Made by a program: the position numbers and the translations under genes
Part shown: positions 30,631 through 49,360 of the stretch, piece after piece
Layout of the letters: each line of letters opens with the position of its first letter
How positions within the stretch are numbered: the first letter of the stretch is position 1
Virus record (IMG/VR): IMGVR_UViG_3300013121_000027
Span: 32,001 to 96,000 of that record
DNA length: 64,000 nt
Direction: 5' to 3' (one strand)
Source: a virus
Lineage: Duplodnaviria > Caudoviricetes
Notes under the pieces: model-generated
What the model saw: the letters and a program-made list of their open reading frames with translations, nothing else
What the model was told of the DNA's origin: nothing
The model's database searches: none

Positions 30631-31348
30631 TACAATAAGATACGATACATAGTCATTTAACTTCAATCGAAAGACTCCATGTACGTGTCCTCAAATCAAT
30701 CATTATATAAGGCTATCTATTTTCAAATTTCGAAACATATTGATAATCTTACAGAAAAAATTTTCATCACTAATAATTTAAAATTTCTGGATTTACAAGT
30801 AACGCAACGACTCATAAGAGTTTTTACGTCTTTGTTATCTTTCTTGGCTACTTTGTATGAATTTGTATATTACTGCATTTCAATGCGATTTACCCAATTG
30901 ATTGTCTAACAACTTTTAAGGAGTTCTTCTGCATGTTTGACATTGAGAATATATCTACAGGCATTGACAAGCCGGTTGATCCAGCTGATAAAGATTTTAA
31001 GTTTTCTTTTCAAGTTGGATCTCATCCCGATTTTCTATCTCAAAAAATAGATTACCGCAATGCTTTAGCAAGTAGATTAGAGCGTTTGATCACGGAACCT
31101 ACTGTAGATGGTCATCCCTATATTCAATACTTGTTTAAAAATATTGAGCGTCCAACCTCAGAAGAACTCCTTATTTTATCTAAGGCTTTAGAACGTATTA
31201 GCCAACTTATTGAACCTTTTAGAAAGCTTGATGAAGAAGTAAAGGGATTGGTATGGGCAAGAGAAAATGCAAAGTTAGTTGCGTGTGCTTTTGGAGATTT
31301 TCCAGTCCCTGACATTCAAGATTTTCTTAACCCCTGAAATTATACTGT

Positions 31349-33055
31349 ATGAAATATGTAATAGATACCGAAAATAAAACCGTTATAGGTCCATTATCTA
31401 ATCTTGAAAAAGCTGCCGATACTTTTTCTTTTCCTGTTGCGAAACTAATTGAAAATGCATCTGCTCTTGCTCGAATTGAAACTGGTCTTCTTCCAGTCCA
31501 AGGCTCTGGACTCGTTTCTTATCGAGCAGCTGCTGAGCATGAACAAATTGTGATTCAATTAGAACCTGGTATTTATACTGTAAAATGGGGACAAAGAGAA
31601 CGCGATGTCAATGCTCAGCTTTTTAGCTTAGCAATGCCTTATCGTATAATTATTGCTGATTTTTATAAAAATGAATTTTTGGGTTCCCGTCATTTCTTTT
31701 CTATGACTCCAGCTTACTCTTGGGATCTTCAACTCTATGTAACTGGATTCTCCAATACAAATAATCTCGGCTATGCCGATACTTCTATTGGTTGGATTTG
31801 TCATTATCATAATAATGCGGGTAAAGAATGTAAAAATCTTAGTGAAAAGATTGACTATGTAATAGATCGTGAATCTGGATTAGGCGAGCCATATAACTAT
31901 AATAATATGAGCGAAACCGATGGTCCTAAATTCTATAGCAAGTTTATGCCCACTAAAACTCATTTTCATAATGCAAGTCATTGGGCGAATAAAACTTCTA
32001 AAGAGGGATTGGATTGGGTTTTCGATCCATCTAATTTTATTCCTTATTCTACTATTGCAACCGATGCTTTCGCCGCTAAAGAATATGTAGATCCTGCTCA
32101 AAAGGGAGCAAAACTATATACTCTTTATGATGCTACTCATAAGCAATATATACCTTATTATCCTCATAGAATTCCATATGCCAAAGAGTTAAAGCCATTC
32201 AATCAATCAATTACCGACATTAATCCTACTCCTTCTTTAACTTCTTTATTATTTACTTTAAAAAGAGATCCAGTAAAATTTGTTCCTCTTTTACAGCAAG
32301 AAGAATTTGGTATAGATATTGCTTCCTTTGAATTTTCCCAAAAAGCTCTTCAAATAAAAAATATTCTTGAAAGTAAAATCTGTCCTCACTGTAATAAAAT
32401 ATTCCCTCAAATGGAAAAATTTACTTCTGTTCTTGTCGGCATTGATACCGTTGAAAAAATAGTGACAGAAAGTGACATGTGGTGTACGCATTGTGTCGCT
32501 ACTTCAACTGCTCAAATCGATATTCATGGAGATACTTTTCCTGCATCTACAGATATATTGCTTTGGAGCGAGCACTATAGTCTATACTTCCTACCCTTTG
32601 ACATTACTGAATGTCCAGGTTGTGGAGAATGTCAGCCAAACAATATAGATACTTCTGACTTTTTTGTTTATGGATTGGATTTCGATAATCCCATTGGATG
32701 TGTTAACTGTCTATATTCTGAAGACGATGAAGCTCTTTATGTTTGGGATCCATTCATTAAAAAGTATTTCATTAACGAATTAGCAGTTGAAGTTCAAACT
32801 CTTCAGATGTTACCAGATCCTCAAACCTTAAAGATATCGGTTTGTCAAGCGCTACAACTTGTCCATCCTACAACCGCAGAACATATTTGTAATTGTGGCA
32901 TGTATATAGATGATCCACTTTCTAAGTGCGTAAGTAAAAAAAAAGAAGATAATTCTTTGACATGTGTCACGTGCGTGAATAAAGAACTTATATCTACAGG
33001 TCCACAAATCACTGAAGTTGTTTTAGATACCAAAGGAAAAACCATAGATGAATGA
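31349..33055 (+). CDS. E2-like (Prok-E2_D) domain fused to a Cys-rich multi-zinc-finger C-terminus
   Basis: LAMPYRIII...GFSN......GWICHY...YNYN, followed by several CxxC pairs; first gene of the JAB/E1/Ubl operon. Confidence 0.6.
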   Translation: MKYVIDTENKTVIGPLSNLEKAADTFSFPVAKLIENASALARIETGLLPVQGSGLVSYRAAAEHEQIVIQLEPGIYTVKWGQRERDVNAQLFSLAMPYRIIIADFYKNEFLGSRHFFSMTPAYSWDLQLYVTGFSNTNNLGYADTSIGWICHYHNNAGKECKNLSEKIDYVIDRESGLGEPYNYNNMSETDGPKFYSKFMPTKTHFHNASHWANKTSKEGLDWVFDPSNFIPYSTIATDAFAAKEYVDPAQKGAKLYTLYDATHKQYIPYYPHRIPYAKELKPFNQSITDINPTPSLTSLLFTLKRDPVKFVPLLQQEEFGIDIASFEFSQKALQIKNILESKICPHCNKIFPQMEKFTSVLVGIDTVEKIVTESDMWCTHCVATSTAQIDIHGDTFPASTDILLWSEHYSLYFLPFDITECPGCGECQPNNIDTSDFFVYGLDFDNPIGCVNCLYSEDDEALYVWDPFIKKYFINELAVEVQTLQMLPDPQTLKISVCQALQLVHPTTAEHICNCGMYIDDPLSKCVSKKKEDNSLTCVTCVNKELISTGPQITEVVLDTKGKTIDE

Positions 33056-34295
33056 GCAAGAGCTCCAAGAATTAGGCTATGTCAGGCACATAGGTCCTCT
33101 CCCCCTTTTCTGGGGTGCCGAGACTGACTCCATGAAAGATATTGAAGAAGCTGGATTCCAAGACTATTATCTTCTTGCTCAAGAAAAGATAGCTCTTCCT
33201 CCTCAGCAGGGTAAAGCTCAAGAATATGCGTATCGTCCTACCATATTTCTTATCACCAAAACTATCATGGGTCGGGCGGTGACACTTGCTGAACCTAAAG
33301 ATATTAATCTTTTTCAATCCACAAACGAAAGCGCTCAATACTTCATGCCCAAGATGCCTTGGGAAATGGTTCAAAAAATGGATGCGTTCTTTAGGTTAAC
33401 CTATAAGAAACATGGCTCTGAAGCTATTCTTGTTCTTACTTATGATATGGATTATGTAGGCACTGAGAATCCTTCTGCTGGATGGAATTGTATTGCTCCT
33501 AAGCAGAAGAATACCGCTGGTAACTGCGACTATGAACCCGATTCTATTCTTCAATATAAGAAAGATTCAGAACTCATCCTTGGCACTATTCACTCTCATC
33601 CAGAAATGAGTGCATACTTTTCCTCTACTGACCATAAGGATCAGGACGAATGGGACGGTATTCATATTACTCAAGCCTGGAAGGGCACCGGTCCTACCGA
33701 GTATTATATTGCTATGATATTAGGTGGACAACAATGGGTTCTTAAACCTGAACAGGTTTTTGATACTCCTCCTCTTCCTCAAGTTGACACAACTCAAGTT
33801 GAGACCTGGATGGAAAATGTAGAAAAAAAAGCCGTCCAGCCGGCACCGATGACTCAGTATGGCAAGACTTATGGTACCACGGGTACCTCTAATCCGCCAT
33901 TGAGCTTGGCTATGCCGTTGCCCACTCAAGGGTTTATGCCTGCTGATAAAGTACGTGCAATCAAGCTTCCAGCTAACGCTCCCGATCCAGAAACGACAGT
34001 TATCATTCCCGAATATCCCGCCTCTATTCTTACCGATACCGTTCTTCATAAGTGCCGCCTCTGCAACGCACCACTTCTTGCTCAGTGTGTTAATTCTCGT
34101 AGGTGTGTTGCTTGCACTGCCTTTATGTTGATTGAAGGTGAAAGCGTAAAGGATCTTGAAGATTATAGAAATAATGGCAAATGGTCCTATTCACTTTACA
34201 TTGATTTGGAAAAGTCTCCCAATCCTATTTCCATCTATTACTTGGATGAAACTTTCTCTGATGATCAAAGAATTGGTGCCTACCCAAAAGTTTAG
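33048..34295 (+). CDS. JAB/MPN metalloprotease (Ubl-processing or deconjugating) with a C-terminal Zn ribbon
   Basis: SEAI...GTIHSHPEMSAYFSSTDHKD matches E-HxH-x7-S-x2-D. Confidence 0.9.
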   Translation: MNEQELQELGYVRHIGPLPLFWGAETDSMKDIEEAGFQDYYLLAQEKIALPPQQGKAQEYAYRPTIFLITKTIMGRAVTLAEPKDINLFQSTNESAQYFMPKMPWEMVQKMDAFFRLTYKKHGSEAILVLTYDMDYVGTENPSAGWNCIAPKQKNTAGNCDYEPDSILQYKKDSELILGTIHSHPEMSAYFSSTDHKDQDEWDGIHITQAWKGTGPTEYYIAMILGGQQWVLKPEQVFDTPPLPQVDTTQVETWMENVEKKAVQPAPMTQYGKTYGTTGTSNPPLSLAMPLPTQGFMPADKVRAIKLPANAPDPETTVIIPEYPASILTDTVLHKCRLCNAPLLAQCVNSRRCVACTAFMLIEGESVKDLEDYRNNGKWSYSLYIDLEKSPNPISIYYLDETFSDDQRIGAYPKV

Positions 34296-34951
34296 GGGAC
34301 ACGGTTGCCCCCTTCGATCATAAAGATCGCCCTAGCCCTGCGTATAGGTTAATATCGTGTCCCGAATGCTATTCTGATTTTGATGATTATACCTACACAA
34401 CTGGCAAGCCTGTCTTAGCTGATCTTTGGTTCTGTACCTATTGTGGTTGCGGAGTTCAAGATTACTTCATTCTAGGAACTGAAGTCTGTTGGTTTGTAGA
34501 CAGTATTGATCTTATAGATGAATTTGAATTTCTTTATGAACCAATTTCTGCGATGACCCAATTGGATCTACAGAATTCGTTTACTTGTTTATGTTGCGAT
34601 CTTCCTATCGAAGATTGTCAAACTTATGGTCAACCCAGATTCAATATTTCTCAAATAAGCATTGAGGACTATATGATTGATCATCATATTATGCGCAGAG
34701 ATATTTATAATGAAAACTTTTCGGATTGCTGCACATGCCAGTTCTATATGACAGATGCTTGTGTTCCTTTAAGAAATATTATTCGTTTTTACCATCAAGC
34801 CAAAGTCATTCCATCCTTTAATTTAGTCGGATGTTATGATTATGAGCAAAATGATGATGCTGATGAATATCTTAACGCATTAAGTGATCAAAAATTTCAA
34901 TCAGAAAAAGAAAAAGATACAATTGTCTTGCCTAAAAAATATACACTTTAA
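34283..34951 (+). CDS. Cys-rich domain probably expressed by -1 frameshift from the JAB gene; extends track ORF 34553-34951
   Basis: Frame is open from 34265 with no ATG/GTG/TTG until 34553, yet encodes CPEC...CTYC; slippery C CCA AAA at 34283-34289. Confidence 0.65.
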   Translation, partial: PKSLGDTVAPFDHKDRPSPAYRLISCPECYSDFDDYTYTTGKPVLADLWFCTYCGCGVQDYFILGTEVCWFVDSIDLIDEFEFLYEPISAMTQLDLQNSFTCLCCDLPIEDCQTYGQPRFNISQISIEDYMIDHHIMRRDIYNENFSDCCTCQFYMTDACVPLRNIIRFYHQAKVIPSFNLVGCYDYEQNDDADEYLNALSDQKFQSEKEKDTIVLPKKYTL

Positions 34952-34959
34952 GGATACTA

Positions 34960-35754
34960 ATGGCTAATAACACTAAAAGGATGATCCTGATTGGCTGTGG
35001 AGGTACAGGAACATGGCTTGCCCATGGTCTTGCTAAATCTCTTCAGTTTCAAGCTCCAGGATCTGCTCTTCTTCTTATAGATGGCGATTCATTTGAACCT
35101 AAGAATGCAGAACGTCAACAGTTTTCACATACTGGTAATAAAGCTTACGTTTTAGCCGAAGATATTCAATATCAAAACCAAGCTATATTTGTTATCCCTC
35201 GTGCTGCCTGGATTGTATCTGCTGATGTTGAGGATCAAGTAGATGACGACGAAGCTGATGATGGTGCTGTTGTTGTTGCCCGTATTACTGCAGAATCTTT
35301 GCTTGAAGAGAACGATATTGTTTATGCCTGTGTAGATAACTATGCTGCCCGTAAGTTGATTTTTGATGCCGCAAAGAATCTCTCTAATATAGATGTCTTT
35401 ACTGGTGGCAATGATGAACATCTCTTTGGAACCGTCTATCATTACCGTCGTCGCGATGGACAAGATATAACTTTTCCTCCAGACTATTTCCATGATGAGT
35501 TTATTAATCCTGGAGATAAGAATCCTGGTGAACTCTCCTGCCAAGAAAGAGCAGAGCTTGATGGCGGAACTCAATTGCTCGCTGTAAATATGGCAGTTGC
35601 CTCTCATTTACTTGCCAAAACCGCTCATACGATTTTTGGTACTGAAAAAGAAAATAAGGCTGCCTTGGAAAAGGCAGAAATATACTTTGACCTTGAATTG
35701 GGTCTCTCTCAACCCTATGATCGCCGTCCAGCTTTGGTTGCTGTAACGGTTTAA
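34960..35754 (+). CDS. E1/ThiF-family ubiquitin-like activating enzyme
   Basis: GCGGTG; DGDSFEPKNAERQ; CVDNYAAR; candidate catalytic Cys in ELSCQER. Confidence 0.9.
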   Translation: MANNTKRMILIGCGGTGTWLAHGLAKSLQFQAPGSALLLIDGDSFEPKNAERQQFSHTGNKAYVLAEDIQYQNQAIFVIPRAAWIVSADVEDQVDDDEADDGAVVVARITAESLLEENDIVYACVDNYAARKLIFDAAKNLSNIDVFTGGNDEHLFGTVYHYRRRDGQDITFPPDYFHDEFINPGDKNPGELSCQERAELDGGTQLLAVNMAVASHLLAKTAHTIFGTEKENKAALEKAEIYFDLELGLSQPYDRRPALVAVTV

Positions 35755-35788
35755 TATATAAACACATACAATAAAGGATATATATAAC

Positions 35789-36043
35789 ATGACTACTGGT
35801 GAATCAGCAGCCGCAGCAAGCAGCCCAAGCTCTTCTGGCAAGGCAACTATTAAGTCTGGCGTTCGCGTTCAGCAAATCGAAGCGGGTCAGACTGTCGGAC
35901 AAGCCCGCGCTGAGTGGGCTACTCTGTTCCGCATTCCAACCGATGCGAAAGCTTACAGTGGTACCACTGAGCTGAGCGAAGATACTCAAATCACTCCTGA
36001 TATGAACGTTGAATTCATTAAGAAGAGTGGAGAGAAGGGCTGA
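35789..36043 (+). CDS. Ubiquitin-like (beta-grasp) modifier ending in ...EFIKKSGEKG
   Basis: Small; G.TV...R pattern; C-terminal GxKG as in PRTRC protein C-type Ubls; directly after E1. Confidence 0.8.
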   Translation: MTTGESAAAASSPSSSGKATIKSGVRVQQIEAGQTVGQARAEWATLFRIPTDAKAYSGTTELSEDTQITPDMNVEFIKKSGEKG

Positions 36044-36069
36044 TTTAAGCCCTAAAGACCTTCGGATCC

Positions 36070-36120
36070 TTTCTCCCTGTTGTCGAGCGTTGTATCAATG
36101 GCTTGACTTCGGGGAGAGGG
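36070..36120 (+). terminator. Long hairpin after the Ubl gene
   Basis: TTTCTCCCTG..GTCGAGC pairs with GCTTGAC..CGGGGAGAG. Confidence 0.5.
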
Positions 36121-36130
36121 ATCTGATACA

Positions 36131-36661
36131 ATGCCTTCTATGGCATTGAATTACACTATCCAAACATTAACGGAAGCTCTTGAATCTATTCTTGGACCTG
36201 AGGCGGCGGCTTTAGTAGCAAGAATAAATGAACTTCCAGGTTCTCACAAGTCTCCTTTTATCGCTTTACCTACAGATATCTCTTCTATTGATGAGATAAC
36301 TCGGCTTATTGCGAAAACTTCAAATGAGTATGGACAAGCTTGTAGGTTAGCTGGTCTTGCCAGAGCTCAATATAAAATAGCCGAAGCTTCTTATAAGTAT
36401 AAGTTTAGAACTTCTATCGGAATGGGAAAGAACTCTTCCGAAAGAGAGTCTAAAGCTTATGCTGCTGCCCAAGCTGAGTACGATAAGATGGTTGTGCTTG
36501 AGGCTATTGTACAGCTTTGTGAATCTATTGAGTCCGCTACTCGTATAGCTTCTGAGTCTTCACGCAGAATGCTGTTAGCAGCTGATCAATCGCAAAAAGC
36601 AGATAGTAGATTTGAGCATTCAGCATCATCCCTATCTGATAAAGACTTCTCTGTCGTATGA
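36131..36661 (+). CDS. Helical/coiled-coil hypothetical protein
   Basis: Ala/Glu-rich ORF between the Ubl and the AAA ATPase. Confidence 0.6.
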   Translation: MPSMALNYTIQTLTEALESILGPEAAALVARINELPGSHKSPFIALPTDISSIDEITRLIAKTSNEYGQACRLAGLARAQYKIAEASYKYKFRTSIGMGKNSSERESKAYAAAQAEYDKMVVLEAIVQLCESIESATRIASESSRRMLLAADQSQKADSRFEHSASSLSDKDFSVV

Positions 36662-36933
36662 TGACACAAAAAATTGGTTTTTATTATTCTCTTAATGAAA
36701 ATTGTCCTCATATCTTTTCTACAGTCTTTGTAGAAGACACCTTTACTTTTCCCTATTCTTTAATTAGGGATTGTTTTTCTTGCAATAAAACTCATTCGTT
36801 TAAATATTCATCTTCCTACTTAGTGAATACTCCACGTCAAAGAGCTTTAATGCAAACTTATTCGAAAAAAATAGGCGTTATTGAAGAGAACGTCATAGTC
36901 TAATTATAAAATACAATACCGATAAGGGATAAA

Positions 36934-38547
36934 ATGTCGTCTTTAGTTGACTCTTTGTCAAATCGTACTCCTATTGTCTGGGTTAATACATTGGAACCCG
37001 AAAGGGCTATTGCAGCTATCCCTTCTTTGAAGTCTGATGCAAGACCTCTCTATGTTTATGATGAATTCTCAGGTCTAATGGTTTGGGATCAAGACAAGGA
37101 CACTTGGAAAGTTGTCTTGGTTGAAATTAAGGATCCCGATACAGGTGAAGTAGTCCAAAAGCCAGTCTTTGGTTCTCAACAAGCCTTTGGTTATATCCTT
37201 AACCAGGATCCAAGTATTTATATAGTTCGTAATGCTCATAAAGATATTGATAACCACTTAACTTTATTCTCTGTTTTGTATAATCGTTATCGTTCAACGT
37301 TCTTTTCTGATGACTTGGATAAGCTCCCTACTCAAGTTATTTGCTTTGCGGCAAATGAGCCAGCGCCACCCGAAATCTCTTCAATGACTACAACTGCTGC
37401 ATGGGGATATCCGACTCCCCTTGAGCTTCGCACTATTATAACTAATATTCGTCAGAACTATAAAGACGACGTTGCTTCTGATGAAGATCTTGATGAGCTT
37501 GTCAAGTCTTCAGTCGGTCTTACTGAGCACGATGCTATTGAAGTCTATCTTTCTTCTATTCGTTCTCATGGCACCATTGACAAAAAGACTCTTCGTTCTT
37601 TGCGTCTGGAGCGTCTCAAGGCTATGTCCAATCTTGAAGTGGATGAGCCAAAGGTTCAGCTTTCTGATATTGGTGGTCTTGACAATGCTAAGAAGCTTAT
37701 TCAGCGTGCGGCATGGATTTGGCAGAATCCTGAAGAGGCTGCTAAATACAAGCTTGTTCCTCTTCGTCGCATTCTTCTTCTTGGTCTTTCTGGCTGTGGT
37801 AAATCCTACCTTTGCGAGGGTGCAGCCAGCGCTCTTGGTCTTCAGCTCGCCAAAGGTGGCGTCTCCAAGGCTATGAATAAGTTCATTGGTCAATCAGAGG
37901 CAAATATTACTGCCATGTTTGATCAGATCAATGCAATGTCTCCAATTACTCTTTGGATTGATGAAATTGGTCGTGATCTTTCTGGTGGTGGCTCTTCTAA
38001 CTATACCGATGGTGGCACTACTTCTCGTGTTCATGGATTGTTCTTGACTAAGATGCAAGAGCTCAATAAGGATGTATTTGTTTTTGCGGCTGCCAATAAC
38101 ATTGAATCTTTGGCTCCTGAGATGCTTCGTGCCGACCGCTTTGACAAACTCTTCTTCGTTGGCTTCCCGTCCTATGAAGAACGTCGTGATATCTTTGCCC
38201 TTCATCTCCCCAGAGATGCACAGTTTGATCTTGATGAGTTGGCAAGTCATACTCCGTGTTTTACTGGTGCAGAAATAAAAGCTCTTATTGAGCGTACTAT
38301 TTTTGATATTTCTCCACAATATAACCGTACTATTACCACAGAGGATTTAGTTAAAACTATTCCTTATCAGAAAAACCGTATTTGGATTCGTCATCGTAAT
38401 CTTGCTGTCAATATGTACTCCAGTGCCTTCAACGAATATGAATGGGCTTCTACCTCTCAGTATGGTGAAGCTCAGTTTATTATGAAGGGCGTTGAACCAA
38501 AACAAGGCATCACTGTTAATGCGGGGATGAGTCTTAATCTTAAGTAA
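36934..38547 (+). CDS. AAA+ ATPase (Ycf46/SpoVK-like)
   Basis: DIGGL; Walker A GLSGCGKS; Walker B LWIDE; AANN...PEMLRADRFD second region of homology. Confidence 0.9.
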   Translation: MSSLVDSLSNRTPIVWVNTLEPERAIAAIPSLKSDARPLYVYDEFSGLMVWDQDKDTWKVVLVEIKDPDTGEVVQKPVFGSQQAFGYILNQDPSIYIVRNAHKDIDNHLTLFSVLYNRYRSTFFSDDLDKLPTQVICFAANEPAPPEISSMTTTAAWGYPTPLELRTIITNIRQNYKDDVASDEDLDELVKSSVGLTEHDAIEVYLSSIRSHGTIDKKTLRSLRLERLKAMSNLEVDEPKVQLSDIGGLDNAKKLIQRAAWIWQNPEEAAKYKLVPLRRILLLGLSGCGKSYLCEGAASALGLQLAKGGVSKAMNKFIGQSEANITAMFDQINAMSPITLWIDEIGRDLSGGGSSNYTDGGTTSRVHGLFLTKMQELNKDVFVFAAANNIESLAPEMLRADRFDKLFFVGFPSYEERRDIFALHLPRDAQFDLDELASHTPCFTGAEIKALIERTIFDISPQYNRTITTEDLVKTIPYQKNRIWIRHRNLAVNMYSSAFNEYEWASTSQYGEAQFIMKGVEPKQGITVNAGMSLNLK

Positions 38548-41431
38548 TTTGTAAGGAAAATTTATGGACAACCATACCGAAATTGATGATCAAAAACCCC
38601 AAGCCATCGAATTAGTTAAGAAGTGGCATCGTACAGGATTTATATCTGTTTCTTATTGGGCGTATGCGGATAAAGTTATTATAGAAATTGGTGCTACCGA
38701 TCCTGATAATGGTAATGCTTTGAAAGGTGCTACCAAATGCTTTCTTCCAGCCCCACAATTTCTTTCCTATCTTCATGCAGAAGTTCATGGAACAATAGAA
38801 AGAATTTATTCTGATTTTACCCCAACAGGTAAAGGTGTTTCGTTCTTTGGTGGAACTATTTCTCCAGTTGTAATTTCTCGCATCTTTAATTCTAAGGTTT
38901 ATTTAGATTATAAGAATAACAATGCACCTGATTTCTTCTTTCGCACCTTTACCTGTGCCCATTATGAAGGTACCACTCGCGATAAAGGTGTTGTAATTCC
39001 TAATTACAAAGCTGAAATTTCTCGTAATACAATGAAACTTTCTCTCATTGACATTGCTGAAATATATCATTTAGTTAATACTCAAATGATTGTTGAGACA
39101 ATGCTTGATGCAATGGTGGAACATAAATGACAGATATAAATGATGCGGAAGATCTTCATAAGTTATTATTGAAATCATTAGATGTTCTTAGCAATGCGTA
39201 TGATCAAAAGTTTCTTCGTCTTGAAGAAGCTCAATCTCAACTTGAACAACAAGTAGCAGCGCTTACCGCTGGTTATACCGATATTGCGGCTATTTTAGAA
39301 ACTCTTACTTCAATTACTATTAATAGAAGTGAAGAAGATAAAGAAGAATTTTTTAAAACTTTAGCTCTTTCAAGAAAGAGAATTATCGAGACGCTACAAT
39401 ATGGAATCTCTCTCGCTGAAGAACAACTTGACAAATTTACCGCTCATGCACCAGGTCCTGATGCAAAATCTCAGCCTGATAAAGGTGTCAGCAACGAATG
39501 ATTGTTTGATTGTAACTGAATCCCAAGCCCAAATGGATTGGTTGAATTCACCACATCTACTTTCATTATTGTATCCTATTTGCCAGTCTTTAGTTGGAAA
39601 AATAGAGAACTTTTATATTGTTTGTCATTCAATATATGATATGGCTTTAAAAGAAAAAATAGAAGTCCTCTCTTTTAAATCTCTTTAGGAAATATCACAC
39701 ATGAATTATGCACTCTTTGAAGATTTTGATTCTTATGATTCAGAATGTTTAAATCCAAATCCATTTGATCCTAATGTACATTTGTTTTATAAGCCTGAGC
39801 CCTCTCTTATAAACTTTTTTCTTTCACATTCAGCTACTTTAAATACTGTTCTTAATTTCTTTAGCCTTTCATTGGAAGAAGCCTTTTCTCAGCCTAAACA
39901 AATTGATGAATTTGTACAAAATTTTAAAGTTAATAAGCAGGACTCTAGAATAGTTCCCATGTCATTCTCTGCATTTAAGAAAATACTTTTTTCTATTAAA
40001 AAAGAACATGCTGGTGTTTCTATACCCCAGCATATTTTTAATGCAATGCAGTATTTAATTGCTATTTCTGATTCTGATAATTTTATAAGTGCCTTATCTA
40101 AAACTCAAACGGTTCAAGTTTTAAAAATAGAAAAAAGTTTTCGCTCTTCATTTAAGGATTTTTTTTCTACTTGGGAAGAAGATAATTTACTTGGTTTAGA
40201 TTTGATTTTTATGTTTGCTGTTTTTATTGACCACAGATATATCCCAATATATGAATCTATACCTGGAACTAATAAATTCTCACCCAAATGCTTGTTTACT
40301 CCAGCGGTACAAGCACAAAATCTACTTCGTCAAGTATTTAAATCACAACCTCTTGAATCTTCTCTGCTTAAGAATGAATTCTATAAGAGGTTTTATTTTT
40401 CTTTTGATTCTTTTCATGATTGGCTTGTCAGTCTTGATCAAAGATATTTTAATGAATCCTATTTTAATAGATTATGTGTTTCAGAAAAAATTATAACAGA
40501 TTTATCCCTAAAAAGAATGCAAGCTTTAAATGAAACAAAAGTAAAAGAATTCATTAATCCCTATACATGGCAGTGATATGAACTACGATATTGATCCAAA
40601 AGAAGAATACATGGATGAGGAAAATGACATGGATAACAAACCGATAGCTAATGAAAATCCTCAGGTATATATTGATGCTACTGTCCTAAAAACAATGCTA
40701 TTTAAGGAAAAGAAAATGTCAGATATAGATTACATCGCAATGATCATTAAAACCGTTGTACGGGATGATATGATTACTGATGGCTATGCATCTTATGATG
40801 TCACGCAAAATATTTTTACTTGTACCGTCCCACCTTGGGTAAAAATTGTCAATGTAGATAAGAATTCCGTTGGTCAACATCATTTAGCTGGCATCAGTCA
40901 GTTTCATGATATCCATCAATATCCTTCTATCTTTTCTATTCAGATAGATGATAGTCAAAAGCCCTGTTGTATTTGGTATTCTCCTACTGCTAAAGAGATT
41001 AATAAAATGGGAAGTGAGCAGGTTGCCCATTATCCATATGACAAACCACTCATTAACCCTGGATGTTTTAATCCTGATTTAACTGGTAGTAAAAATGTTT
41101 TTGACGTCTGTGGATATGTGAATCCTATGATGTCTGGATTCTCCCAATGTAAGCATCATACTATGTCTTCTTGGGAAGATGTGACTGTTGCTTATGAAGG
41201 TGATAATAAGAAGTTTGCTATTCAGAGAAAGCTTCTTGGAGCTCGTGTTCCCCATTATGCCGTCTATGATTATGATAACAATGTAATCATATCCGAAGGA
41301 ACATCTATTCCTGAAATCAAAGAATCTTTTGAATCTGTAATACAAGATAAAGGATATAGTATTGTATCTGTATCTGGAAATAAGAATTCATACTTTAAAG
41401 CTATTTTTGCCTAATTTAGTTAGGAAACTTT

Positions 41432-42199
41432 ATGACGTTTAATGATAGATATATTTTATTAGATGATGTAGCTAATACCGCTTACGTTTATTTACCTCTA
41501 ATTGGAGGTGCAACACTTCCTTTATCTACATATTTTAATACTATTCGTCAAGGTTTTCCTAACTTAGGTTTTTTACCTCCAGTTACAAAATTAATTACAT
41601 CTATAGATGACAATAATTGCTTTAAGGTTATAGTTGAAGCAGCCCCTAAGATTAGAACCCTGATGCTACAAGATGCTTATACTAATGAGACTGAAATAGT
41701 AGAGACTCCTTTTCCTTGGCACTCTTATATTTTCACTTTCAAAAGGCATTCTAAGACTCCAATATCTTTAATGGATGTTACATTACTTTTTCAACAACGT
41801 CAAATACAATCTGATTTAGATTTAGTTAATGGATTCTTTTCTTTACCTTGGCTTCCAAATGTCTCTACTGCTCATAATTTGATACTACCTTTAACTATTT
41901 CTAAATATTTGACGACAGATATGAATGCCTTTTATCGAGTTTTTCTTGATTCATTTTGGAATAACTATATTGTTACTAAACCTTCACCAAGTTTAGACCT
42001 TCACGCTAAAGAACAACTTGATTCTTTTGAAAAGATTATAAATTTCTTTGAAAATCTTCAATCTAAAACTCTTGATTGGGCTTGTGATTCTACTAATCAT
42101 ATTAAATTAAATGATTACAACGATTCAGATTTACTTTATCTTTTAAGTCCTTCTTCATTTAATTTGTCTTTTAAATTTGAGAATCTATTTAAGGTTTAA
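41432..42199 (+). CDS. E2-like paralog, probably inactive (no Cys after LPN)
   Basis: FLPP...TPFPWHSYI...PWLPNV...FW. Confidence 0.45.
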   Translation: MTFNDRYILLDDVANTAYVYLPLIGGATLPLSTYFNTIRQGFPNLGFLPPVTKLITSIDDNNCFKVIVEAAPKIRTLMLQDAYTNETEIVETPFPWHSYIFTFKRHSKTPISLMDVTLLFQQRQIQSDLDLVNGFFSLPWLPNVSTAHNLILPLTISKYLTTDMNAFYRVFLDSFWNNYIVTKPSPSLDLHAKEQLDSFEKIINFFENLQSKTLDWACDSTNHIKLNDYNDSDLLYLLSPSSFNLSFKFENLFKV

Positions 42200-42201
42200 A
42201 T

Positions 42202-42999
42202 ATGCTACTTCAAATAATCGAAAAAACAAATACCATCTCTACTTCTCTTTATTCTAAACTTGGTACAAAAGCCCAAGCTATTATCGACTGTGATGTAGAT
42301 ACCCTTAATGCCCGCATTGCTTCCTTTGGTACATATCTACCAAATGGATGTTTACCTCCCTCTGTTAGATACATGGATTTAGCAACTGGAATCGTTTTGT
42401 TTGAGCGTCCTCCGACTTATATAAACATTTCTTTTACTAATCAGTATCAAGCAAAATTAAAAGCTGAAGGACGCGCAAAGCGCTCATTTAGAATACCAAT
42501 TCCTTGGCAGCGTTATGTCGTTTATCTTGGTAGCAATGGCTTGCCTTCTACCTTGTTTGTATTTTTTGCCGGGAATCAAATACAAAGTTTAGATAACGAT
42601 CCTATGTCTTCTGCTCCGCTTCCCAATCTTTATACTAACGGTACTGTTTGCCTTCCAGTCTATGATCATCGCGACGTTGTACACTTTGATATTGGTGACG
42701 GAATATACAATATGTATGAAACTGTTTGGGGATCTGGATTCAATCTTGATGTAGTACAATGTCTTAATAATTGGCTTTCCAATAATGCTCCAACTCATCC
42801 ATTGACAAAATTTCCAAACAATATCGATAATATCGTTTCATTCTATAATCATTGGTCTAATTTTAATTTAGAACAGATAATGAAAATGAATTGGCATACT
42901 CCACTTTATAATAGTTTTACTCAACTTATCTCATCTATACCTCCAACAGAGCAAAATCATGATAGCTTTGTTGATTTATATCTTGCAATAAAAGGGTAG
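42202..42999 (+). CDS. Prokaryotic E2-like (Prok-E2_D) protein
   Basis: CLPP...IPIPWQRYVV...APLPNLYTNGTVCL...W.SGFNLD. Confidence 0.7.
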   Translation: MLLQIIEKTNTISTSLYSKLGTKAQAIIDCDVDTLNARIASFGTYLPNGCLPPSVRYMDLATGIVLFERPPTYINISFTNQYQAKLKAEGRAKRSFRIPIPWQRYVVYLGSNGLPSTLFVFFAGNQIQSLDNDPMSSAPLPNLYTNGTVCLPVYDHRDVVHFDIGDGIYNMYETVWGSGFNLDVVQCLNNWLSNNAPTHPLTKFPNNIDNIVSFYNHWSNFNLEQIMKMNWHTPLYNSFTQLISSIPPTEQNHDSFVDLYLAIKG

Positions 43000-47435: not shown

Positions 47436-48620
47436 ATGGTATTATTGATGGTTGATCTTCCTAAGGTTATTCCTACGGCTGATTTACTTGATCCAGAAGA
47501 CAGAGCAATAAATATTGCTATCAATGCTCGTGGATTTAATAGAAGGCGTTCTATTTCCGCCAAAAAAGAATTAATTGCTCCAGATTTTCAAGAGGTTTTT
47601 AATGCTAAATTTGGATCCAATATTCTTTTAGATTCTATGGATGTTGCTTATGATCCTAAAACAAAAACTAACAAGTTTTATGGTAGTATTATTTTTGATC
47701 TCTCTGATGCTATCCTGGTTTATTTTCGTTCCGCTTCGGATTTTAATTATTTCCACTTTTGGTCAGACAAAAATAAAATTGCAGAAGACTATTGTGCTTG
47801 GGTACAGCAGAATCTTATCTTAGATAAGGTTCAAAATGTATTTGATGATAAGAATAATACTCGTGAGATAACCTTTTGGGCAGCAATGGGTGGTGATTAT
47901 GAAGATTTTAATAGGTCTGTTGTTCTTTATAATTGGGATGATCATGTTCAATACAATTATCCTCCCGCAGTTGCTAAACAACTGAATTTCTTGCGCGATC
48001 TTAATCCACCTATTCTTGGCGGTAAGATCTTAATCTTCCATGGAAGTCCTGGTACTGGTAAAACCTCCTTTCTAAGGTGCCTCACGCGCCACTGGACCGA
48101 CTGGTGCCACACTTCTTATATCACTGATCCTGAGAACTTCCTGGGACAACCTGGAGCCATGCTTCGGGTAATCACCTGGAACTATCAATCTTTTATTGCC
48201 GCAGATGTTTTACCCGAAAACGCATATCATCTTCTTATCCTTGAAGATGCTGATGAATTGATAACTACAGATGCAAAAGAAAGAACCGGGCAAGCCCTTT
48301 CTCGTCTCCTCAATATAGGAGATGGTTTGTTGGGTCATTCAACAAATCTTCTTATTTGTATTACTACTAATGTTGAGGTAGAAAAATTGCATCCTGCCAT
48401 TACTCGTAACGGTAGATGTATTGCGAATATTCACTTTGATATGTTCACCTATGAAGAATCTGTTGATTGGTTAAAAGCCAACAATATTGAGGCTTCTCCA
48501 CACGAGATGGGCTTGAAGCACGCTGAGAAATATAGTCTTGCGGATCTTTATGCGCTTTCGAGCAAAGCAAAACAAATCACTCACAAACAAGAAGACTTTG
48601 CAGTGGGTATCTATCTATAG
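47436..48620 (+). CDS. AAA ATPase, DUF5925-associated actinobacterial type
   Basis: GKILIFHGSPGTGKT; LLILEDADEL; GQALSRLLN..DGLLG; LHPAI.R.GRC. Confidence 0.85.
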   Translation: MVLLMVDLPKVIPTADLLDPEDRAINIAINARGFNRRRSISAKKELIAPDFQEVFNAKFGSNILLDSMDVAYDPKTKTNKFYGSIIFDLSDAILVYFRSASDFNYFHFWSDKNKIAEDYCAWVQQNLILDKVQNVFDDKNNTREITFWAAMGGDYEDFNRSVVLYNWDDHVQYNYPPAVAKQLNFLRDLNPPILGGKILIFHGSPGTGKTSFLRCLTRHWTDWCHTSYITDPENFLGQPGAMLRVITWNYQSFIAADVLPENAYHLLILEDADELITTDAKERTGQALSRLLNIGDGLLGHSTNLLICITTNVEVEKLHPAITRNGRCIANIHFDMFTYEESVDWLKANNIEASPHEMGLKHAEKYSLADLYALSSKAKQITHKQEDFAVGIYL

Positions 48621-48661
48621 TATAATACTAATTACATACATGTAAAATAAAAAGGATTTAA

Positions 48662-49360
48662 ATGACAAAGAAAAATTACACTCATATTACTGCCGTTGTA
48701 GATCGTTCTGGATCGATGGTGACCATTCAGGAAGATGCCCAAGGTGGTATTAACCAGCTTATTGTAGCAAATAAAGAAGCTCCTGGTCAATGTACCTTTG
48801 CTCTCTATCAGTTTGATACAGAATTCGAAACTGTAGTTGCACCATCAAACATTTCTATGGTCGGAGAGTATACTCTTGTACCTCGTGGTGGAACTGCCCT
48901 TCTTGATGCTCAATGGAAAGCTATTCAACTAACTGGTGAATATCTTAAGTCTTTACCAGAAAAACAACGTCCTGAAAAGGTTATCTTCATCACCGTAACT
49001 GATGGTGGGGAAAATATGTCAAAGGAAATTGTTGGATGGCAAGGTACACAAAACCTTAAGAATAAAATTGAAGAGCAGAAGAATAAGTATTCTTGGGATT
49101 TCGTTTACATTGGCGCCAATCAGGACGCTTTTGCTGTCGGTCAATCAATGGGAATTAATACTACTACTACCTATATACCAAATACCTGGTCCACTAAGGC
49201 TATGTACGGCAATCTTGCGACCGCTACTGTGACCTCACGTGCTACAGGCGAATCAATGACTAATTATCTTGCTTCGTCTGTCACTGCTGATGGCACTCTT
49301 GTCTTTGATAAGAAAGACAAAGAGGAAAAGAAAGAAGCTACAACTGGAGATAATAAATGA
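48662..49360 (+). CDS. vWA-domain protein
   Basis: MIDAS motif DRSGSM; PRGGTALLDA; TDGGEN. Confidence 0.9.
   Translation: MTKKNYTHITAVVDRSGSMVTIQEDAQGGINQLIVANKEAPGQCTFALYQFDTEFETVVAPSNISMVGEYTLVPRGGTALLDAQWKAIQLTGEYLKSLPEKQRPEKVIFITVTDGGENMSKEIVGWQGTQNLKNKIEEQKNKYSWDFVYIGANQDAFAVGQSMGINTTTTYIPNTWSTKAMYGNLATATVTSRATGESMTNYLASSVTADGTLVFDKKDKEEKKEATTGDNK

Follow-up and report, generated by a model that had tools for sequence, protein, structure and literature searches.

A probable ubiquitin-like conjugation and deconjugation cassette encoded by a clade of jumbo tailed phages

Ubiquitin-like (Ubl) conjugation in prokaryotes has so far been studied from the host side, as anti-phage defence. Among bacterial Ubl operons, those of Type II CBASS (an anti-phage signalling system that uses cyclic oligonucleotides) and Bil contribute to immunity against phages, a role also predicted for Bub (PMC11601596). 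Bil displays no recognisable E3, and its E2 is presumed to select the target (PMC11601596). Operon type 6d (Iyer, Burroughs and Aravind 2006, PMC1779556) is distinguished by an E2 devoid of the classical His and showing an absolutely conserved His after the Cys; it also includes an alpha-helical protein that diverges rapidly and has charged residues that are conserved. Here we describe a cassette of E2-like, JAB, E1 and Ubl genes, followed by an AAA+ ATPase gene, in a 64,000-nucleotide stretch of viral DNA (hereafter the window) corresponding to bases 32001-96000 of IMG/VR record IMGVR_UViG_3300013121_000027. Our results point, with a probability that we place at about 0.75, to a phage-encoded system of Ubl conjugation and deconjugation that constitutes a core feature in a clade of lake-water jumbo phages of ~200-270 kb. 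Here it is the virus that owns a complete and conserved set. No paper on phage-encoded E1/E2/Ubl/JAB sets was found in the literature searched, and a survey of jumbo phages (PMC7824862) mentions neither JAB nor ThiF.

An earlier note on this DNA had described eight co-oriented open reading frames (ORFs) between 31349 and 38547 as a complete Ubl operon followed by an AAA ATPase. All eight are present, all on the plus strand, and the set is complete, E1, E2-like, JAB and Ubl genes being all found. Further parts of the system lie outside these limits, at 30933, 38564, 39127, 41432 and 42202. The main components, in window coordinates, are the following.

31349..33055, plus strand: 568-aa E2-like and zinc-ribbon-like protein; E2-like domain at about residues 40-240 with candidate Cys151, C-terminal part with five CxxC pairs
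33048..34295, plus strand: JAB/JAMM metallopeptidase, 415-aa 0-frame product; Pfam Prok-JAB E 3.8e-7
34283..34289, plus strand: slippery heptamer C CCA AAA, in the JAB register, 6 nt before the JAB stop codon
34265..34951, plus strand: open -1-frame JAB extension of ~222 aa, counted from the heptamer; includes zinc ribbons and, at its C-terminus, a conserved Cys-rich domain
34960..35754, plus strand: minimal ThiF-type E1, 264 aa; Pfam ThiF E 1.8e-13
35789..36043, plus strand: putative ubiquitin-like tag, 84 aa, with a predicted beta-grasp core and a GEKG end
36934..38547, plus strand: classical-clade AAA+ ATPase, 537 aa; Pfam AAA E 1.7e-21
41432..42199, plus strand: E2-like paralog, 255 aa, without the Cys; paralog-family hidden Markov model (HMM) E 5.6e-4
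42202..42999, plus strand: Prok-E2_D-type E2 paralog, 265 aa, with LPNLYTNGTVC and invariant Cys150

As judged from these genes, the nearest description of the cassette is operon type 6d (PMC1779556). The gene set of that type, a separate Gly-ended Ubl together with standalone E1, JAB and E2-like genes, was found here. Further likenesses to type 6d and to the PRTRC system (TIGR03735-03742) are an N-terminally extended JAB, a small standalone E1, an E2 without the classical His of HPN and, in the window's subclade, a charged helical-looking protein. The last one is encoded by ORF 36131, which fits the type 6d helical protein by its charged residues, a comparison based on sequence composition. 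Differences are the fusion of E2 to zinc ribbons, the probable extension of JAB by frameshifting, additional E2 paralogs and the AAA+ neighbour. Moreover, PRTRC cassettes are borne by plasmids or integrative and conjugative elements, whereas the present one occurs in lytic-type jumbo phages.

The earlier note had pointed to the PRTRC-type cassettes of bacterial mobile elements. This comparison holds insofar as PRTRC is the nearest curated family for E1 and JAB, but the cassette is not a member of it, the scores being far below the cut-offs. PRTRC_ThiF (TIGR03736) was the best NCBIfam match of the E1, with 34.7 bits (E 1.1e-8) for a cut-off of 144.75, and the window JAB reached 20.1 bits with PRTRC_A (TIGR03735, cut-off 101.8). 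All 12 JAB orthologs scanned matched PRTRC_A, the best one at E 5.4e-15. The models for PRTRC B (E2), C (Ubl), E and F matched no window protein at E <=0.1. They were also absent from the 25 families listed, of 31 matched, when 71 orthologs of the families E2D, Ubl, F, up134, dn188 and dn124 were scanned against NCBIfam (E <=0.05). A Pfam scan of 20 flanking ORFs, from 27283 to 54788, gave no ParB match; one distant relative (L004) carries a ParB_N gene 5 kb upstream of its cassette.

Bil (BilABCD) shares the same four parts with the phage cassette, namely Ubl, E2, JAB peptidase and E1, and in neither is an E3 recognisable. Yet the phage E1 is a single adenylation domain of 264 aa, unlike the E1 architecture of Bil (PMC11601596), and for this reason the cassette is not a Bil system. 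Bil is furthermore host-encoded and anti-phage, in contrast to a cassette owned by a phage. Likeness to Type II CBASS concerns the E1, E2 and JAB chemistry (Cap2 and Cap3), and in PADLOC the window E1 weakly matched E1-E2 models (E 5.8e-7) and its JAB scored E 0.01. In CBASS, however, E1 and E2 are fused in Cap2, no Ubl gene is present and Cap2 conjugates the cyclase itself, whereas the phage cassette displays separate genes and a dedicated Ubl; since it has this Ubl, it is not CBASS. Comparison with the eukaryotic ubiquitin-Cdc48/p97 system and with the ubiquitin-E1-E2-Rpn11 set of Caldiarchaeum also revealed common points. The phage ATPase is closest to Cdc48/p97 D2 domains, a putative poly-Ubl precursor occurs in a related cultured phage and the best fold match of the phage tag is Caldiarchaeum ubiquitin. 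In contrast to both systems, the phage has neither RING E3 nor proteasome, and its AAA protein has a single ATPase module.

The source genome is that of a jumbo tailed phage and the cassette is phage-encoded. The IMG/VR record is 231,459 bp long, displays direct terminal repeats and has a CheckV completeness of 100%. Its genes include those for a large terminase (Terminase_6N) and for a capsid protein of the HK97 type (Phage_capsid), both above their Pfam cut-offs. Because the cassette resides in a complete tailed phage genome with terminase and capsid genes, the earlier note's claim that the phage owns the pathway was correct. Long ORFs of the window are almost all on the plus strand. RNase H and WhiB genes were found immediately upstream of the cassette by Pfam scan, with the same synteny in relatives. 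Megablast of the operon DNA gave no match among GenBank phages.

A search for related loci with the single E1 protein found none. With a profile of 26 E1 homologs, 79 IMG/VR loci were recovered, many of them on contigs of 170-270 kb; ORFs were called in all of them and compared with the window proteins. The order E2-JAB-E1-Ubl was kept in these 79 loci and in several metagenome loci, including a distant group whose E1 is only 30-36% identical to that of the window. More than 50 independent phage contigs display the gene order of the window, which is therefore not a chance arrangement. In the main clade (~50% E1 identity), the order is 134-aa gene, E2-like/zinc ribbons, JAB, E1, Ubl, AAA, 188-aa gene and 124-aa gene, with one to three further E2-like genes 3-6 kb downstream. 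The distant group, found on contigs of up to 527 kb, retained the order E2-like-JAB-E1-Ubl. In this group (L061-L087, e.g. L064:5691-8309), the E2-like domain is embedded in a ~870-aa protein and the Ubl ORFs remain open over ~160 aa, architectures unlike those of the window. Among metagenomic proteins, 421 E1 homologs were recorded.

Five complete E1-bearing genomes encode a terminase 51-54% identical to the window's. A related terminase is encoded on 376 IMG/VR contigs which, together with the 79 contigs bearing E1, indicates that the system is common. Among the best 80 of these 376 terminase relatives, all three complete genomes carry E1. E1 is missing from a 93%-complete relative with only 34% terminase identity. 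The cassette thus looks like a core feature within its clade, as far as this small sample of complete genomes goes. Its position is also fixed, within a syntenic block RNase H-WhiB-cassette-AAA, in all related complete genomes examined.

This fixed position bears on the idea that the cassette is a weapon against competing phages or mobile elements and works like Bil, which tags a tail protein of an invader, instead of belonging to the phage's own programme. The characterised bacterial Ubl operons are indeed anti-phage (PMC11601596), and the occurrence of several E2 paralogs whose C-termini vary would agree with a diversifying target recognition. However, the cassette does not lie in a variable island, and no PADLOC defence model was matched beyond the generic similarity of E1 and JAB. 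We consider this explanation unlikely.

Related cassettes also occur in cultured phages. In Bacillus phage vB_BceM_WH1 (LC597490.1, 229.8 kb), a cultured jumbo phage, E2-JAB-E1 correspond to gp214-gp215-gp216, with profile matches at E about 1e-4 for the E2-like protein (gp214), E 1.4e-24 for JAB (gp215) and E 1.2e-20 for E1 (gp216). Upstream of these genes, gp211 (L198:781-1680), annotated as "virion structural protein", is composed of five tandem 57-aa repeats matching the Ubl profile at E 3e-14. Each repeat ends with EFKVQAGTKG and the last one is followed by a tail of 15 aa. With every repeat ending in AGTKG, this is the organization of a polyubiquitin-like precursor. It implies that cleavage takes place behind the Gly, and is a strong argument for this residue being both the cleavage and the conjugation point. 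A looser E1 tblastn (E <=0.1) uncovered distant E1s in cultured jumbo phages, including Bacillus phages at E 2e-7 and 1e-6. A run at E <=1e-5 had given no match, which is inconsistent with the looser run and so is not evidence of absence.

Relatives of the E1 in GTDB genomes (L088-L108) occurred only on contigs of metagenome-assembled genomes attributed to groups of the candidate phyla radiation (CPR), Woesearchaeota, Cyclobacteriaceae and Gammaproteobacteria. These contigs are probably mis-binned phage DNA. Since the taxa are mixed and implausible, no host can be assigned from them.

In 39 aligned orthologs of the 84-aa tag, G81, K83 and G84 are invariant and E82 nearly so, and the GEKG end is kept throughout the main clade. 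A stop codon directly follows the final Gly in most orthologs; several carry one to four extra residues (NI, SL, LA, RKAL or C), and such short tails are the usual sign of a precursor that would be trimmed to expose the Gly. The earlier note had made its reading of this protein as a Ubl dependent on a beta-grasp fold, and such a fold was predicted. The AlphaFold2 (AF2) model built on the ortholog alignment had a mean predicted local distance difference test score (pLDDT) of 80.5, with a core above 90 and a disordered N-terminus. Its topology was strand-strand-helix-strand-strand-strand with a flexible tail. Foldseek ranked Caldiarchaeum ubiquitin bound to an Rpn11-type peptidase first (6fnn, E 3.5e-4) and then ubiquitin, NEDD8, SUMO and ISG15, with template modelling (TM) scores of about 0.6 and a probability of 1.00. 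In its predicted fold and its flexible tail with exposed Gly, the protein fits the ubiquitin-like beta-grasp modifiers.

The E1 passed the Pfam ThiF cut-off (50.6 bits for 28.1) over a single region, residues 6-143. Invariant columns among 26 homologs were G12, G14, G15 and G17 (GxGGxG), R52, Q53, D126 and C194. By analogy with ThiF and MoeB, we take the Arg to be the Arg finger and the Asp to bind Mg. With the GxGGxG motif, the Arg, the Asp and the Pfam score, the protein can be counted, by its sequence, among the ThiF-MoeB adenylyltransferases. Candidate catalytic Cys194 sits in an ELSCQE loop, and every full-length ortholog listed, even those only 30-36% identical, retains a Cys in this loop. 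Nearest solved relatives were MccB, TcdA and UBA5, all remote (E about 1e-4). Against a role in Ubl transfer, the protein is a lone adenylation domain devoid of a separate Cys domain and of an E2-docking domain.

The resemblance of the Ubl tail and the ThiF-type E1 to sulfur-carrier systems raises the possibility that they form a pair of the ThiS/MoaD or CysO type, with JAB releasing the product, rather than a protein tagging system. The remote matches to MccB, TcdA and UBA5 would agree with this, and JAB-CysO pairs were described in Iyer et al. 2006 (PMC1779556). Nevertheless, in every clade the pair is found together with two to three E2-like genes whose Cys is invariant, the neighbours scanned included no gene for a rhodanese, a sulfurtransferase or cofactor synthesis, and the five-repeat precursor of vB_BceM_WH1 fits a tag. 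A sulfur carrier is thus highly improbable. Another proposal is counter-defence, where JAB would strip host Ubl conjugates of the CBASS or Bil type and E1, E2 and Ubl would serve as decoys or inhibitors. It is in line with the distant homology to host defence parts seen in PADLOC, which is generic support. A decoy, however, would need neither the conserved Gly and its tails, nor the E1 and E2 Cys residues, nor a poly-Ubl precursor, and this explanation appears quite unlikely, if less so than a sulfur carrier.

Orthologs of ORF 31349 (n=37), the E2-like component of the proposed conjugation system, display invariant N136, N138, G141, Y142, G148, W149, C151 and Y153, and the family consensus is LPNINCKGYRGNGVGWICLYH. 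We take this stretch to resemble, with a short insertion, the HPN...C active site of canonical E2s. HPN is replaced by LPN in the family and by FSN in the window protein. Residue 154, following C151, is commonly His, with Q, L, R or G in some orthologs. Residues 1-240 aligned to a Pfam Prok-E2_D protein at the locus of a distant relative (BLASTP E 3e-4), and hhalign of the E2-like domain profile with that of the Prok-E2_D paralog family gave 96.5% (E 8.4e-10). When an AF2 model of ORF 31349 (pLDDT 79.9) was submitted to a structural aligner, E2s made up 47 of the top 50 chains and the whole UBC core was covered.

Three observations weigh against an E2. The structural matches had Z-scores of 3.2-4.2, a range that the tool calls common, with a root-mean-square deviation of about 5 A; Foldseek with the same model returned nothing from PDB at E <=0.001; and Pfam E2 models matched none of the 37 orthologs and not the window protein either (Prok-E2_D cut-off 25 bits). 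Our reading is that of a real but very divergent E2, a weak assignment, fused to a C-terminal part with five CxxC pairs between residues 345 and 542. The E2-like domain with zinc fingers proposed in the earlier note is retained in this form.

Additional E2-like genes lie downstream. ORF 42202 is an ortholog of the Pfam Prok-E2_D protein (E 2e-16) and belongs to a paralog family in which N142 and C150 are invariant. Prok-E2_D was matched by 11 of the 32 members (best E 8.3e-8), the window's own copy scoring 13.2-13.8 bits, below the cut-off of 25. ORF 41432 is related to the same family (hhalign 88.4%, E 2.8e-6, 139 columns) and keeps the LPN, with no Cys after it. It is apparently an inactive E2-like paralog comparable to a ubiquitin E2 variant (UEV). 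This Cys-less gene directly precedes the Cys-bearing ORF 42202, which recalls UEV-E2 pairs. A profile search of PDB with the E2D family returned nothing, and HMM and single-sequence hhalign searches gave no support for ORFs 25929, 27283, 39701 and 40578 as E2 paralogs.

The JAB protein passed the Prok-JAB cut-off (30.4 bits for 25) and carries the motif HSHPEMSAYFSSTD at residue 182. The pattern HxHx7SxxD is intact in 64 of 66 orthologs, and the protein can thereby be placed, from its motif and profile score, among the JAMM/MPN+ metallopeptidases. Its 0-frame product displays an N-terminal extension of ~160 aa and one zinc ribbon (C336-C356).

The 132-aa Cys-rich ORF (34553-34951), presented in the earlier note as a separate gene, proved to be the second half of a C-terminal JAB extension in the -1 frame. 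This frame is open from 34265, overlaps the JAB stop and contains no ATG, GTG or TTG before 34553. The 96 codons preceding 34553 encode a CxxC...CxxC ribbon. About 45 main-clade relatives encode JAB as one ORF of 534-590 aa reaching up to E1, and the C-terminal part of these long JABs shows homology to the -1 ORF family (hhalign 98.9%, E 3.5e-17). All nine split loci, the window included, display an in-register X XXY YYZ heptamer in the last JAB codons (CCCAAAA in three, GGGAAAA in six), and the slippery pattern is thus kept though the encoded residues differ. At the same place in the unsplit loci, any such heptamer was found in only two of ~50. In seven of the nine split loci, the first canonical -1 start lies past the first conserved CxxC.

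Since the heptamer is present in all nine split loci, the -1 ORF has no early start and relatives display a fused ORF, a -1 programmed frameshift probably takes place at CCCAAAA, yielding JAB in a short form and in a long form that carries the zinc ribbons. Two points count against it. In two split loci an ATG stands just before the first zinc ribbon, so that separate initiation would be possible there, and a downstream hairpin was significant in only three of the nine. In the window, the hairpin is a small GGGG...CCCC stem, 5 nt after the heptamer (z -0.1). The arrangement resembles those of lambda G/GT and E. coli dnaX in its X XXY YYZ at the end of the 0 frame, its overlapping startless -1 ORF and a fused product that corresponds to one ORF in relatives. 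It differs from them by its location in the gene for a deubiquitinase-like peptidase and by a less clear stimulatory structure. Read-through of the UAG was considered as another way of joining JAB to the Cys-rich part and was rejected: the 0 frame reaches a TAA 18 codons past the TAG, whereas the frame of the Cys-rich ORF is -1, and JABs of relatives terminate with TAA, TAG or TGA.

The AAA+ ATPase, also announced in the earlier note, scored 77.5 bits with Pfam AAA (cut-off 21.2) and 26.5 bits with AAA_lid_3, just under the cut-off of 27.2. It is organized as an N-domain of ~220 aa, of unassigned family, and one AAA module with Walker A GLSGCGKS at 284 and WIDE at 341. Closest solved chains are D2 domains of Cdc48, p97 and AFG2 (E about 1e-45), and phrog_8638 was matched at E 7e-66. 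These matches assign the ATPase to the classical AAA clade (Cdc48, p97, PAN, FtsH). A phage-encoded peptidase partner was sought and dismissed, no proteasome or ClpP being found in the phage genome and the C-termini of the AAA proteins having no penultimate Tyr.

Its link to tagging is based on synteny. The AAA gene is syntenic in 58 loci, all of the main clade, and is always followed there by the 188-aa and 124-aa genes. On this basis, a functional link between ATPase and tagging is somewhat favoured. It is weakened by the absence of the ATPase from distant cassettes, since phages with 30-36% E1 identity have no AAA gene within 10 kb and the Bacillus phage cassette none within 6 kb. It is also weakened by AAA relatives, e.g. 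gp96 of mycobacteriophage Corndog, in records of cultured phages to which the window's JAB gave no tblastn match. These observations would suit a real Ubl cassette next to which AAA+ and the following genes are unrelated neighbours, tagging then altering activity, location or assembly of its targets with no unfolding involved. The variable Ubl-AAA interval, a promoter-like site at 36103-36132 and the lack of proteasome and ClpP genes also agree with mere neighbourhood. On the other hand, AAA follows Ubl in the 58 main-clade loci despite ~50% protein divergence, with the same two genes next to it. We hold unrelated neighbours to be a serious alternative, though the less probable of the two.

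Taken together, the gene set, catalytic motifs, predicted folds, conservation and phage ownership allow a course of reactions to be inferred for the conjugation system. The 84-aa Ubl would be made with a free C-terminal Gly, which JAB would expose in the short-tailed or tandem-repeat relatives. E1 would adenylate this Gly and probably take the Ubl onto Cys194 as a thioester, from where it would pass to an E2-like Cys, either Cys151 of the 568-aa protein or Cys150 of ORF 42202. The zinc-ribbon tail of the 568-aa protein would select the target, and the Ubl would end on a target amine. The JAMM peptidase, in two forms of 415 aa and, via the -1 frameshift, ~640 aa, would trim precursors or remove the tag. 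Zinc-ribbon tails of both the E2 and the long JAB are candidates for target recognition; the earlier note had regarded the Cys-rich domains as candidate E3-like adaptors. Finally, the Cdc48-like AAA+ unfoldase and the two downstream proteins may act on the tagged proteins. A more elaborate version, in which the phage would run a minimal ubiquitin-and-segregase pathway with a panel of E2s bearing zinc-ribbon readers to tag host or phage proteins, extraction or unfolding of these by AAA+ with two dedicated partners, and frameshift-controlled JAMM isoforms timing the tag, is speculative and rather improbable. If true, eukaryotic ubiquitin signalling would have a viral parallel, and bacterial Ubl immunity its mirror image.

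Ownership of the cassette by phages raises the questions of how tagging benefits a phage and whether the same chemistry is used by both sides in the conflict between hosts and phages. The cultured Bacillus jumbo phages with related cassettes make genetics and proteomics feasible. The GEKG tail offers a simple read-out, as modified lysines are expected to retain a single Gly after digestion with trypsin. The putatively frameshifted JAMM peptidase and the Cys-less E2 paralog provide further testable features.

Five accessory genes accompany the cassette.

30933..31337, plus strand: conserved 134-aa protein, family unassigned; directly upstream of the E2-like gene, same-position BLASTP orthologs in 37 loci
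36131..36661, plus strand: 176-aa protein with a high content of Ala, Glu, Arg and Lys; 9 orthologs, subclade-restricted
36658..36903, plus strand: 81-aa protein with conserved C16, C39, C42 and H46 (alignment of 4 orthologs)
38564..39130, plus strand: conserved 188-aa protein, family unassigned; directly after AAA, same-position orthologs in 56 loci
39127..39501, plus strand: conserved 124-aa protein; after the 188-aa gene, same-position orthologs in 35 loci

The 134-aa protein matched neither Pfam nor PDB, the latter also by profile search of the family, and the same was true for the 188-aa protein; the 124-aa protein had no Pfam match. No Pfam, PHROG, NCBIfam or PADLOC model matched the E2-like, Cys-rich, Ubl, 176-aa or 81-aa ORFs. 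The 176-aa and 81-aa genes stand between Ubl and AAA in the window's subclade only and not in the main clade. Both were found in L002, L004 and L006, and only the 176-aa gene was detected in L050-L056. Eleven charged residues are invariant across the nine orthologs of the 176-aa protein. The 81-aa ORF had BLASTP matches in only seven loci; as the small Cys/His protein of the earlier note, it does conserve C16, C39, C42 and H46, which form a probable zinc site. In relatives, the Ubl-AAA interval is occupied by an HNH gene (L002) or by other inserts.

The promoter-like site at 36103-36132 (TTGACT, 18-nt spacer, TACAAT, with an upstream TG) is located in the 88 nt that separate Ubl from the 176-aa gene; a scan for promoters and terminators gave no excess over the shuffled expectation. 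Further downstream, a second AAA ATPase is encoded at 47436-49360 (Pfam AAA E 1.1e-9); the protein encoded after it matched VWA_2 weakly, the two genes forming a possible MoxR/VWA-type pair.

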